Source: Dehalococcoidia bacterium
Lineage (GTDB): Bacteria; Chloroflexota; Dehalococcoidia; Plut-88900
Length of the DNA: 64,000 nt
Assembly (NCBI GenBank): GCA_965207225.1
Contig: CBDBLV010000005.1
Span: 768,001-832,000 of the forward strand
Direction: 5' to 3'
Position numbers and translations under genes: made by a program. The notes under the pieces are model-generated. The model was given only the letters and a program-made list of their open reading frames with translations. It searched no databases and was not told the origin of the DNA. The stretch's first letter is position 1; the number at the start of each line of letters is the position of its first letter. Positions 13,931 to 17,522 of the stretch are shown in pieces.

Positions 13931-14017
13931 TGGTGCCGAAGCCCGGACTCGAACCGGGACAGGGTTTCCCCCAGCGGTTTTTGAGACCGCCGCGTCTGCC
14001 TATTCCGCCACTTCGGC
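13931..14017 (-). tRNA. tRNA-Leu(CAA)
   Basis: GCCGAAG acceptor stem, anticodon loop CT-CAA-AA, long variable arm, GTTCGAG T-loop, encoded CCA. Confidence 0.97.
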
Positions 14018-14043
14018 CTAACCCGCCTGCGGGCTTAAATGGA

Positions 14044-14119
<76 letters not shown>

Positions 14120-14231: not shown

Positions 14232-15104
14232 TTGACCAAGTCCCTCAACGTTGCCTCCCTATCCCCCGGCGACGGCAAGTCCACCATAATCGCCGCCCTC
14301 GCCCGACACTTCCAGTCCCTCGGCAAGACCGTCGATTGCTCCGCCCCCGACCCCATGAAATCCCTCCTCGGCCTCTCCGACTCCCCTCCCAACCCCGACA
14401 TCCTCATCACCGATTCCTCCGACTCCCAATCCGACGCCTCCCTCCTTGTTGTCTCCTTCTCCCGTGACCTCGACCTCGACGCCGTAAAACCCGCAGCCAA
14501 TGCTCTTGGCGACGGTTTTCTCGGCGTCATCATCAACCGTGTCCCCACCTACGGCGCCCGACTCGCCGAAAACACCCTCAAGCCCTCCCTTGAAGCCGCC
14601 GGCCTCACTGTCCTCGGCCTGGTCCCTGAATCCCGGGCCCTGTACGGCATCACCGTCGACGACCTCATCAACCGCCTCGACGCCCGCTACGCCCTCCAGC
14701 TCGAAAGCGGCGACGCCCTCGTGGAGCACGTCATGGTCGGCGCCAACGTCCTCGATGCCGAGGACTTCCCCGCCGGCCCCGAGTACTACGCCCAGCGCTC
14801 CAACAAGGCCGTCATCGGCCGAGGTGACCGCCCCGACTTCCACTGGAGCGCCATCGACACCCCCACCCGCTGCGTCATCCTCACCGGCAACTTCGAACCC
14901 ATCCCCTACCTCCTCGCCAAGGCCGAGGAGCGCCAGGTCCCCGTCGCCGTCGTAGATAAAGACACCCTGGACGTCATGGACACCCTCGAAGACATCTTCA
15001 ACGGCCCCTCCCTGGACTCCGGTGCCAAGCTCACCGCCTTCACCTCCCTCATCGAAAGCTCCGTCGACACCTCTGCCCTCGACTCAGCCCTGGGCGTAAA
15101 CTAG
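14232..15104 (+). CDS. BioD-like P-loop/DRTGG-domain protein (phosphotransacetylase N-terminal-like)
   Basis: GDGKS P-loop; KAVIGRGDRPD...CVILTG DRTGG signature; TTG start. Confidence 0.8.
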   Translation: MTKSLNVASLSPGDGKSTIIAALARHFQSLGKTVDCSAPDPMKSLLGLSDSPPNPDILITDSSDSQSDASLLVVSFSRDLDLDAVKPAANALGDGFLGVIINRVPTYGARLAENTLKPSLEAAGLTVLGLVPESRALYGITVDDLINRLDARYALQLESGDALVEHVMVGANVLDAEDFPAGPEYYAQRSNKAVIGRGDRPDFHWSAIDTPTRCVILTGNFEPIPYLLAKAEERQVPVAVVDKDTLDVMDTLEDIFNGPSLDSGAKLTAFTSLIESSVDTSALDSALGVN

Positions 15105-15240
15105 CTCCCACAACAGTCTCGCTCCCATAGACCCGCCCCCCATCCCTTCTCCAACATCCAACCCCCAACCCCCTCCCCATCCATCATTCCCGACCCCGAT
15201 CGGAAATCCATCCCCCTCCCCCCCAAATGTGACATACCCC

Positions 15241-15269
15241 TTGACATGCAAACATTTGAGCCTTATATT
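15241..15269 (+). promoter_or_regulatory. sigma70-type promoter upstream of the candidate ncRNA
   Basis: TTGACA-17 nt-TATATT in an AT-rich patch. Confidence 0.7.
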
Positions 15270-15387
15270 TGTTCTAAGTCTAGACCCAACACTAATTTTA
15301 AGGAGGAACCAAAAACCCGGGGAAGCCCCCGAGACCCGACCCGAGGACTCAACGCCCTAGCCCATCCCAAGACCTCGCCCCTCTCTT

Positions 15388-15412
15388 GTAGGGGCGACCG
15401 GCCAATCGCCCC
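15388..15412 (+). repeat. GTAG-family REP-like palindrome
   Basis: GTAGGGGCGACCGGCCAATCGCCCC; related copies at 36679-36703 and 56977-57001. Confidence 0.75.
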
Positions 15413-15498
15413 CCCTTGCGAGGAAGGAAGGTTGCGGCACAAGCGAACGTCGCCATCTCCTCATCCCACCGGGTCCCGTGCTCCTTCCCTGGTAGTCA

Positions 15499-16036
15499 GG
15501 CGATGGAAAGACGCCCTGGATAGAAGCCACAGCGGACCGGCCATTCCCCCGCCGAGAGACCCTCTCGGTGGCTGGTTAGCAGCGAGCTTACGCTATATCA
15601 AGCTAGGGGTGGGACGGACCGGCCATCCCCGCCCGGGACTGGCTTCCGGAGGTTGGCCCGTAGGCGAGCTTACGCCATATCAAGCAAGGGGAAATGCGGG
15701 CCGGCTCTACCCCGCCGGGACCGGTTCCCGGGGGTTGGCCCGCCGGCGAGCTTGCGCCATATCAAGCGAGGGGTTTGCTGGACCGCCCAGACCCGAGGGT
15801 GCGCGCCACGTAAAGTAACTCCCGGGGGCTACCCGCCGATCACTGGCCCCCACTGCGCCCTTAGGCGCCTGGGAGCGGGTCAAGGCCCGGCTGTCCGCCC
15901 GAACACCCGGGCACACATCGGGCAGAAGGGTGCGGCCGGCTGCAATCCGCCCCCCGGCGGACCTCCATGGCCCCCGACAGCCGAGCACCGCAAGAGAGTG
16001 GAGGCCACCGGCTCACCAGGTGCGTCTTCCATCGCC
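15499..16036 (+). ncRNA. candidate large structured non-coding RNA (family not recognised)
   Basis: Terminal helix 15499-15519/16016-16036; three 82-nt covarying modules; many additional stems; G-U wobbles favour the + strand. Confidence 0.6.
15532..15777 (+). repeat. 3 x 82-nt imperfect tandem repeat
   Basis: Core RGCGAGCTTRCGCYATATCAAGC at 15581, 15663 and 15745. Confidence 0.92.
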
Positions 16037-16127
16037 GCCCCAAAACCCACCAGACAGAACGGAAACCAAAACCCACAACTGAATAGCAATCCGGTGTCTC
16101 CCCTGCTTCCCCAGCAGACACGCACAG

Positions 16128-16156
16128 TTGCCAGCCTCCGCCTTGATTTATATAAT
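16128..16156 (+). promoter_or_regulatory. sigma70-type promoter of speD-speE
   Basis: TTGCCA-17 nt-TATAAT, ~45 nt upstream of speD. Confidence 0.75.
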
Positions 16157-16199
16157 GCGTCCTCTACGCGTGTGTAAATCCACTACGGGGGGCGGGTGA

Positions 16200-16574
16200 T
16201 TGAATGTCCTCGGAAACCACTTACTGCTGGAACTGAAGAACTGCGACAGCGTCCTCTTGGACGACCTGCCCTACGTTAGAGATGCCCTCATCTCCGCCGC
16301 CGAGCAGATGGGCGCCCGGGTCCTCGGCGAGTCCTTCCACAAGTTCCACCCCCAGGGCGTGACCGGCGTAGTCCCCATCTCCGAGTCTCACCTCTGCATC
16401 CACACATGGCCCGAGCACCGCTACGCCGCCGTAGACGTCTTCACCTGCAGCCAGACCTTCGACCCCCACCGCGTCGCCGAATTCCTCATCGACAAATTCG
16501 ACTGTAAGGACCCGTCCTTGATTGTCGTCAATCGGGGTATCCTCACCCCGGTCCCGGTCTCCCTCGGCTCCTAG
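16200..16574 (+). CDS. speD: S-adenosylmethionine decarboxylase proenzyme (SpeD/SpeH type)
   Basis: FHKF.PQGVTG...SESH..IHTWPE..YAAVDVFTC. Confidence 0.95.
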   Translation: MNVLGNHLLLELKNCDSVLLDDLPYVRDALISAAEQMGARVLGESFHKFHPQGVTGVVPISESHLCIHTWPEHRYAAVDVFTCSQTFDPHRVAEFLIDKFDCKDPSLIVVNRGILTPVPVSLGS

Positions 16575-16607: not shown

Positions 16608-17522
16608 ATGACCCGGGACCCCAGCACCTGGTTCAGAGAGTCGGTATCCGAGGATCTTTACCAGGAAGCCAGGATCTCCGACATCGTCTACTCCGGCCGG
16701 AGTCCCTACCAGACAATCGAGATCATAGACACCCTCCCCTTCGGCCGCACCCTCGTCCTCGATGGCAAGACCCAGTCCTCAGAGACCGACGAGTTCATCT
16801 ACCACGAGATGCTCGTCCACCCCGCCATGATCACCCACCCCAACCCCGAGACCGTATTCATCGCAGGCGGCGGGGAGGGTGCCACCCTCCGGGACGTTCT
16901 TTGTCACAAGAGCGTCAAGCATGCCGTCATGGTAGACATCGATGAGCAGGTGGTGGAAGCTTCCCGCCGGCACCTTCCCGCCTGGCACGCTGGGGCCTTC
17001 GACGACCCCCGCACCACACTCCTCTACCAGGACGCCAGGGATTACCTCGAAAACACAGACTCTACCTTCGACGTTATCTTTATCGACCTCTCCGATCCCG
17101 TCGAAGGAAACCCCTCCGCCCTCCTCTTCACCGAGCGCTTCTTCAAAGTGGTCCGTGACCGGCTGGCCCCCGGTGGCATCATGGCCCTCCAGGCCGAGAC
17201 CGTTGACTACCTCCGCACCGCCGCCTTCACCGCCATCTGCCACACCCTCGCCCAGGTCTTCGAAAAAGTCCTCCCGTACCACATCGTTGTCCCCAGCTTC
17301 AGCGGAGACTGGGGTTTCGCCACCGCCAGCCGGACCCTTGACCCGACAACCCTCTCCGAATCCGACATAGATTCCGCCCTCGCTTCCCGCCTCACCAGAC
17401 CCTGTCGCGCCTATGACGGCAACACCCACAAGGGCCTCTTCCTCCTCCCCCGCCTCCTCCGCCAGGCCCTCGCCGCCGAGACCCACGTCCTCACCGAATC
17501 CAACCCTCTCATTGTCCCCTAA
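16608..17522 (+). CDS. speE: polyamine aminopropyltransferase (spermidine synthase)
   Basis: LVLDG..QS...DEFIYHEMLVHP, GGGEG, VDID, FDVIFIDLSDP. Confidence 0.95.
   Translation: MTRDPSTWFRESVSEDLYQEARISDIVYSGRSPYQTIEIIDTLPFGRTLVLDGKTQSSETDEFIYHEMLVHPAMITHPNPETVFIAGGGEGATLRDVLCHKSVKHAVMVDIDEQVVEASRRHLPAWHAGAFDDPRTTLLYQDARDYLENTDSTFDVIFIDLSDPVEGNPSALLFTERFFKVVRDRLAPGGIMALQAETVDYLRTAAFTAICHTLAQVFEKVLPYHIVVPSFSGDWGFATASRTLDPTTLSESDIDSALASRLTRPCRAYDGNTHKGLFLLPRLLRQALAAETHVLTESNPLIVP

Follow-up and report, generated by a model that had tools for sequence, protein, structure and literature searches.

Putative tandem 82-nt RNA modules in the variable domain of a multicopy non-coding element from a Dehalococcoidia genus

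Introduction

Three similar sequence units stand in tandem in front of speD and speE in the window analysed here (the whole stretch of Dehalococcoidia DNA under study, 64 kb in length), and the question raised by this locus is whether they sense a metabolite of the genes that they precede or belong to a larger structure that lies there for other reasons. The genes are identified on the + strand as speD (16200-16574; AdoMet_dc, E = 9.2e-38) and speE (16608-17522; Spermine_synth, E = 3.1e-46), and a resident speD promoter-like site (TTGCCA, 17 nt, TATAAT) is located at 16128-16156 on the same strand. At the other end of the intergenic region, the protein encoded at 14232-15104 (+ strand) combines a DRTGG domain with a nucleotide-binding domain of the CobQ/CobB/MinD/ParA type, and its gene is syntenic with speDE in four related genomes (G001, G002, G005 and G007). 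Genes for tRNA-Leu(CAA) and tRNA-Phe(GAA) lie on the - strand at 13931-14119, about 1.1 kb upstream of the element described below.

Results

The three tandem units of 82 nt that a first-pass annotation had placed at 15532-15777 were recovered by repeat detection, motif counting and model-based search. Tandem Repeats Finder reported a period of 82 over 15582-15774 (2.4 copies, 81% matches), and the three occurrences of a 22-nt core in the 64-kb window, at 15582, 15664 and 15746, compare with an expectation of 0.00 derived from 100 shuffles. A covariance model of the unit, R1, matched 15531-15614, 15613-15696 and 15695-15778, and the unit starts are therefore exactly 82 nt apart. All units are read on the + strand. 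Unit 1 (15532-15613; R1 E-value of 2.7e-15) is composed of an outer stem, a C-rich internal loop, an inner hairpin, a core hairpin closed by an A-U pair and the words CAAGC and GGGG, whereas the core hairpin of unit 2 (15614-15695; 4.1e-16) is closed by G-C. Unit 3 (15696-15777; 3.0e-16) is a younger duplicate of unit 2 that is present in some species only. The 82-nt windows flanking the array on its 5' and 3' sides did not align as units. A partial fourth unit, proposed to start at 15778, proved to be only a look-alike of ~13 nt of the unit 5' strand, with no R1 match at that position; the same look-alike trails the last unit in all 27 aligned copies, irrespective of whether they carry two or three units. 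The view that the array is not a protein repeat was upheld, since both the period of 82 and a unit number of either 2 or 3 rule this out. A coding reading of the region was likewise rejected, because its ORFs match no Pfam family (three ORFs spanning the region) and no PHROGs family at E ≤0.1 (seven ORFs). A CRISPR array was also considered and rejected, as the units abut head to tail without unique spacers and are only 74-77% alike between neighbours.

A blastn search with 14900-16400 against the window's own genome (G000; 4.03 Mb, 5 contigs) revealed that the whole intergenic stretch is part of a large dispersed family, of which 35 copies were collected in this genome, with elements spanning ~0.55-0.85 kb. 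In the window, the element is non-coding, promoter-driven and ~850 nt long (~15241-16127), and the array sits in its variable domain, which is closed by a helix. Of the first-pass reading, non-coding units that fold into the nested helices as drawn are borne out, but the array is not a free-standing series of aptamers; it is an internal expansion of one cassette type. The whole inserted segment, which has no counterpart in two sister species, spans 15112-16127 on the + strand (boundaries within ~3 nt, with CAC on both sides). It may be compound, and contains at 15160-15215, upstream of the element promoter, a REP-like hairpin repeat that belongs to a separate dispersed family. This repeat, formed by CATTCCCGA, a few bases and TCGGGAATCCATCCC, gives 75 blastn matches in G000; it is frequently, yet not invariably, found beside element copies, and many of the matches lie apart from any of them.

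The element itself reads on the + strand from a promoter-like site, P1, at 15241-15269 (TTGACA, 17 nt, TATATT; 11 of 12 consensus positions), with a predicted start near 15276. A conserved 5' domain (15300-15498) opens with a Shine-Dalgarno-like box at 15300-15309 and is followed by the 5' strand of the closing helix (15499-15519), in which ten outer pairs are invariant and the inner part is cassette-specific. The 3' strand of this helix (16016-16036) changes to match the 5' strand, so that inner pairs differ by cassette type while both strands change together. Between the array and the 3' strand, the post-repeat part of the variable middle domain (15778-16015) has covarying hairpins of its own: in the alignment, columns 373-387 present GC 15 / AU 12 and CG 15 / UA 12, and columns 469-498 show five double changes in each of three pairs. 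The helix is followed by a C/A-rich conserved 3' tail (16037-16085), ending ...CACAACTGAATA, for which 36 blastn matches were obtained in G000, and by a terminal hairpin, GGTGTCT ... AGACAC, read from the sequence at 16093-16122 directly before the -35 box of the host gene. A similar terminal hairpin is seen in the G007 and G005 copies at the speDE site.

All 35 copies share the layout of conserved 5' domain, long closing helix, variable middle domain and C/A-rich 3' tail. One of three sigma-70-like promoter modules was identified upstream of each of them, which suggests that the element is transcribed from its own sigma-70-type promoter; the ends of the RNA and its processing are putative in the same manner. 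Two blocks of the 5' domain gave 45 and 39 blastn matches in G000, and the domain presents hairpin-sized indels whose lengths are not multiples of 3. Together with the absence of Pfam or PHROG matches for the ORFs noted above, these non-triplet indels indicate that the element is non-coding. Promoter type and middle-domain type combine freely, and the five unit-bearing copies use all three promoter types. The 35 dispersed copies and the presence or absence of the element at the orthologous speDE site recall MITEs; none of the 14 inverted pairs detected in 15090-16135 is a terminal inverted repeat, and in the one comparison of a filled and an empty site only the 3-nt CAC is common to both insert junctions.

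Several smaller features accompany the family. Mini-hairpins that resemble the REP-like repeat (CCCCGAG, a few bases, TCGGGG) are inserted at multiple points of the 5' domain in copies of the family. On the 3' side of several copies lies a repeated module with a strong intrinsic terminator and a T-run (CCAGTAC..AACTAGAGGCA ... TGCCTCTGTTTTT), as exemplified in G000 at C1:~100-337, from C5:315869 onward and at C5:1654563-1654824; three copies of it were found by a crude pattern search, and more by eye. A 17-nt match that is 76% complementary links 15319-15335, in the first hairpin of the 5' domain, with 16096-16112 in the terminal region of the element, and could bring the ends of the RNA together.

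The fold of a single unit was analyzed on an alignment drawn from 30 loci, in which 65 core matches yielded 58 distinct 84-nt windows; four windows without unit features were left out, and the remaining 54 distinct units come from eight genomes of one genus. The outer stem comprises ten pairs, with 94.1% of its cells paired and three pairs changed on both sides (GC 20 / AU 19 / AC 15 in one example), and the inner hairpin is paired in 85.1% of cells, with one pair present as AU in 31 units and GC in 22. The outer stem and the inner hairpin noted from the window's units alone were thus confirmed, the pairing in both being kept by compensatory and G-U changes. RNAalifold recovered the outer stem, to which it added an eleventh pair, and the small core hairpin. 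The covariation score of the structure was 0.167, compared to 0.140 ± 0.004 after shuffling (none of 500 shuffles reaching 0.167) and 0.05-0.10 in controls with slid partners; since the units are close kin, shuffle controls overstate the support, and the score amounts to moderate support rather than proof. The 918 helix cells contain 163 G.U but only 21 A.C combinations, an excess which identifies the + strand, the strand behind the promoter, as the one that folds. Folding energy of the variable domain was also more extreme on the + strand (z -3.03) than on the - strand (z -1.18). Judged by these substitution patterns, the nested helices are a property of the + strand RNA. Single units gained nothing over shuffled sequences in folding energy (z -1.05, 0.12 and -0.69), and with z-scores near 0 thermodynamics was rejected as support for individual units; for unit 2, the fold of minimum energy is a different structure, which counts against a reading of the units as modules.

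Each unit had also been credited with a covarying H-type pseudoknot, formed by the core hairpin (stem 1) and by pairing of its loop with a downstream word (stem 2). Stem 1 keeps GCG/CGC unchanged in 53 of 54 units; its fourth position holds A-U in all of the 22 first units, G-C in 26 of the later ones and U.C in 6 units. The change between A-U and G-C at the base of the core hairpin is hence genuine, and may trace to a single event. In stem 2, at least four contiguous pairs between the loop GCUU(G) and (C)AAGC are possible in 53 of 54 units. The most frequent combination, AGCUUA with CAAGC, forms four pairs (33 units), and AGCUUG with CAAGC forms five (11 units). Five units with several loops and one partner changed present a wobble at one position, in three kinds; the loop AACUUG, with CAAGA or CAAGC, loses one end pair and gains the other in four units, and pairing of AGCAUA with CAAGC is broken in one. 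In all four units without the G-C end pair, where A.A or A.C takes its place, a G at the opposite end supplies a new G-C pair. No compensatory double change was observed in stem 2 among the 54 units. Of the covarying pseudoknot as proposed, the compensatory change in stem 1 was recovered, whereas stem 2 shows near-universal complementarity without covariation. The loop lengths (1, 0-1 and 4-5 nt) would allow a compact H-type pseudoknot on steric grounds.

A second contact, between CCCC and GGGG, is possible in nearly all units, and the bases involved are almost invariant. Because the bases of the loop and tail words and of the CCCC/GGGG contact hardly vary, covariation neither supports nor refutes either pairing, and a double compensatory substitution is seen in neither of them. 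Linker length, on the other hand, does vary, with 4-9 nt before CAAGC and 1-7 nt after it, while CAAGC and GGGG persist; the retention of both words in the face of linker indels points to selection on them. A 4-nt complement to a 6-nt loop, or runs of C and G in DNA of 60% G+C, can also originate by chance. In the alignment of the full domain, RNAalifold paired some GGGG tracts with other C-runs, and the 54 units include one with a broken core hairpin and one with a mismatch inside the pseudoknot.

The distribution of the family was assessed at increasing phylogenetic distance. The 5' domain was detected in all nine genomes of the genus (G000 and eight of eight others), with no match in three other genera of the family and two weak matches among 29 further genomes of the class, and the unit-bearing middle domain was present in eight of the nine genus genomes. 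R1 identified 91 units in 8 of 12 family genomes, invariably as tandems of two or three within one RNA type, including 12 units in G000 (arranged 3+3+2+2+2). It returned no matches in three other genera of the family, and in 145 other genomes of the class it gave only two marginal ones (E of 0.023 and 0.028 per genome), which is chance level. The cassette looks dispensable: G004, a genome 93% complete, has no match to it, and G001 and G003 have one copy each. A scan for the core motif with one genome per species yielded 26 stretches, 22 of which are in records titled 'MAG: Dehalococcoidia bacterium', and the other four are single matches in unrelated taxa, about the number expected by chance. 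A degenerate pattern for units with variant pseudoknot bases returned at least 120 stretches from metagenomes, but this pattern is too loose for G+C-rich DNA, and none of 80 loci among the matches listed fitted R1 at E ≤0.01.

A FastTree phylogeny of the 54 units has its midpoint root between the first and the later units, with several species in either clade, and places the third units as a group inside the later ones. A split of this kind implies that the step from one to two units is old, and on this tree it happened before the species searched diverged; the step from two to three, as placed by the same comparison, is younger and occurred in one clade (G000, G005, G007 and G008). Units keep their positional identity across species and have not been homogenised. 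A second three-unit copy in G000 (C5:737544-738428), which precedes folD and lies 45 kb upstream of the window's copy, is 88% identical to it over 892 nt.

Comparison of orthologous sites separates the history of the element from that of its cassette. At the folD site, G000 has three units and G008 and G005 have two, and G007, G001 and G002 are without a unit-bearing copy. At the ribF site, the 5' domain is matched 380-620 nt upstream of the gene in five of five relatives, and units are found in G000 only. The speDE site is filled in G000, G005, G007 and G008, and empty in two of the five relatives examined (G001 and G002). The G008 copy is of the three-unit type, and G005 and G007 have a family member there but no unit-bearing match. 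Taken together, the folD, ribF and speDE sites indicate that element positions are largely inherited and that the middle cassette is exchanged; by this comparison of sites, the unit domain is one of several cassettes swapped between resident copies of the element.

In the two genomes with an empty speDE site (G002, locus L070, and G001, locus L068), which lack a counterpart of 15112-16122, only about 10 nt at most separate the stop of the upstream gene from the speD promoter, which is retained as TTGTCA, 17 nt, TATAAT. In the window, the element stops directly at the upstream edge of the resident speD -35 box (16123-16133), a position that could reflect either targeting to promoter edges or selection for that position. 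Several other copies in G000 have a promoter-like site 11-50 nt past the tail. The five unit-bearing copies in G000 are all co-oriented with their genes, which begin 43-154 nt downstream and are speDE, folD, ribF, a peptidase S58 gene and an MFS transporter gene. Across the family, and with downstream genes called by a crude GC3 filter, the first downstream gene is co-oriented in 30 of 35 copies and opposite in 3, and none was found in 2.

These neighbors bear directly on the proposal, based on the adjacency of speDE, that the units respond to SAM or a polyamine. Since unit-bearing copies also precede folD, ribF, peptidase and transporter genes, a SAM/polyamine sensor is unlikely, and the link is further weakened by the empty speDE sites of G001 and G002. 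A cmscan with 4227 Rfam families at E ≤10 found nothing on 15200-16130, and only three tRNAs exceeded the Rfam gathering thresholds in the whole window; the suggested comparison with small ribozymes and the Chloroflexi-1 motif gave no match on the array at E ≤10. A tandem SAM/polyamine riboswitch was rejected as an assignment, given that there is neither an aptamer family match nor a consistent pathway association. Repeats of a ToxI-like type III toxin-antitoxin system were rejected too, the genes after the five arrays being metabolic or transport genes.

Discussion

The reading that we favor, and whose chances of being right or wrong as a whole we consider evenly balanced, is that the array represents duplicated structural modules forming a docking arm of a multicopy RNA. 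The three units would be tandem duplicates of an RNA structural module of ~82 nt, and the array one arm of the helix-closed variable domain of a non-coding RNA of ~0.55-0.85 kb, from a family of which G000 has 35 copies. Each module would consist of an irregular hairpin, made up of an outer helix of 11 bp, an asymmetric internal loop that is C-rich and conserved, and an inner hairpin of 6-7 bp with a freely variable loop, followed by a mini-hairpin of 27 nt and by the short single-stranded words CAAGC and GGGG, both invariant. Tertiary pairing is predicted for the invariant loop and tail words: the hairpin loop would form an H-type pseudoknot with CAAGC, and GGGG would join CCCC, thereby compacting each module, and two or three modules together would then offer a repetitive, multivalent docking surface for a protein or another RNA. 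Docking is possibly the function of the array, and the modules would not sense a metabolite of the adjacent genes.

Neutral expansion deserves to be taken seriously, although we would not expect it to be correct: replication slippage or unequal recombination in a length-tolerant part of a selfish mosaic repeat element would have copied an 82-nt stretch and produced functionless, VNTR-like modules. It would account for a unit number that varies between 2 and 3, for cassettes swapped between copies and species and for the absence of the cassette from G004 and its single copies in G001 and G003, and it is in keeping with the unremarkable folding energies of the units and with a genome full of other small repeat modules. 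Units under neutral expansion, however, would hardly keep position-specific signatures across species without decay or homogenising, maintain their helices through G-U and compensatory changes on one strand, or retain CAAGC and GGGG amid surrounding indels. Unlikely, too, is a cis-acting role in which the element is a portable strong promoter with a nuclease-resistant structured leader and the units serve as ballast, RNase-processing or insulating hairpins. The orientation of downstream genes (30 of 35 copies co-oriented, 3 opposite and 2 with no gene found; all five unit-bearing copies co-oriented at 43-154 nt) is what such a cassette would produce, but the same bias is expected for any strongly transcribed insert. 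The absence of a terminator-like site on the + strand between the element and speD, the Shine-Dalgarno-like box near the 5' end and the end of the element right at the -35 box of the resident promoter also fit; yet host genes retain their own promoter, and in at least three copies, by a crude pattern search, a module with a strong terminator intervenes before the next gene, which implies that the RNA can also end on its own. Furthermore, a cis-acting cassette leaves unexplained why cassette-specific structure is kept.

It is doubtful that the units are autonomous pseudoknotted modules, binding a protein, a small ligand or RNA, within plug-in cassettes of a new class of large RNA genes that have their own promoter, have spread to ~35 sites, settle at promoter edges and exchange their middles by recombination. 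Release of the units as small RNAs of ~82 nt, whether by self-cleavage or by a nuclease, to act as repeat-derived antitoxin or guide RNAs, we consider very unlikely. The head-to-tail layout and fixed period are suggestive of it, and the closing helix of ~20 bp resembles a substrate of RNase III; against this, no Rfam self-cleaving ribozyme matches at E ≤10, the five loci share no gene for a nuclease or toxin, there are only two or three units per array, and the units differ by position instead of being uniform. Slightly less probable still are tandem aptamers for SAM, decarboxylated SAM, MTA or a polyamine that regulate speDE. The placement of the array upstream of speD and speE in the window invites this idea, and the mini-hairpin together with its downstream complement matches the smallest known pseudoknot aptamers in size, but the same units precede folD, ribF, peptidase S58 and MFS transporter genes, G001 and G002 have nothing inserted at the speDE site and G005 and G007 have it occupied without a unit-bearing match, speD has a promoter of its own downstream of the element, and no riboswitch family matches.

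Read as a modular RNA with a duplicated docking arm, the element shares traits with several known systems. The BOX elements of Streptococcus pneumoniae, built from boxA, tandem boxB and boxC, are dispersed, multicopy, intergenic and modular, and the Correia/NEMIS elements of Neisseria are modular intergenic repeats. Like both, the present element is dispersed and gene-adjacent, has a variable tandem sub-unit, folds as RNA when transcribed and can bring promoters. It differs from both in its far greater length (0.55-0.85 kb), in a full consensus promoter upstream, in helices kept across species by compensatory and G-U changes and in the lack of detected terminal inverted repeats, and has no sequence relation to them. 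OLE, GOLLD, ROOL and raiA are large structured non-coding RNAs of bacteria that were found by comparative sequence analysis; the element resembles them in its length of hundreds of nucleotides, its many conserved helices and an obscure biochemical role, but is present in 35 copies in G000 instead of one or few, has an exchangeable middle and no Rfam match, and is restricted to one genus among the genomes searched.

Analogies for the array itself are found in CsrB/RsmZ, protein-sponge RNAs with repeated hairpin sites, in which a small structured site likewise recurs several times, in similar form, along one RNA, and which provide a working model for the units. The array has only two or three units, each spanning 82 nt and considerably more elaborate in structure than a GGA hairpin. 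The class I preQ1 aptamer is a minimal H-type pseudoknot, and the unit is comparable in that the loop of its 4-bp hairpin has a potential pairing partner of 4-5 nt a short distance downstream; unlike the aptamer, the unit has no Rfam match, no covariation in its second stem and no gene association pointing to a ligand. Expansion segments of rRNA, helical insertions that differ between lineages, vary in length and occupy a helix-closed position where a conserved scaffold tolerates them, offer an image of an insertion such as the array, which is also helical, variable in length and set at a helix-closed site. Here, however, the scaffold itself is a multicopy element, and whole cassettes are swapped between copies. 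No such element was found among the best-ranked matches of full-text literature searches that covered open-access articles.

If the favored reading is correct, an uncultured Dehalococcoidia genus known from sponge and other marine metagenomes would carry a structured RNA family, with 35 copies in G000, that is absent from Rfam and from the literature searched, in which a conserved scaffold has a helix-closed slot for exchangeable cassettes, one of which grew by duplication of an 82-nt module. It would provide a natural example of modular RNA architecture and of new RNA domains arising via tandem duplication, as well as a small (27-82 nt), well-delimited candidate tertiary motif that could be tested in vitro without culturing the organism; the polyamine/SAM riboswitch, a tempting but probably mistaken lead, would stand corrected. 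Parts of the stretch were encountered in public runs (X9-X23), the labels of which are mostly sponge, coral or marine metagenomes. The array is also represented in public contigs: record 11 of X3 spans 15449-15865, and record 29 of X9, a sponge metagenome, covers 15515-15716 and carries units 1-2 with two differences.
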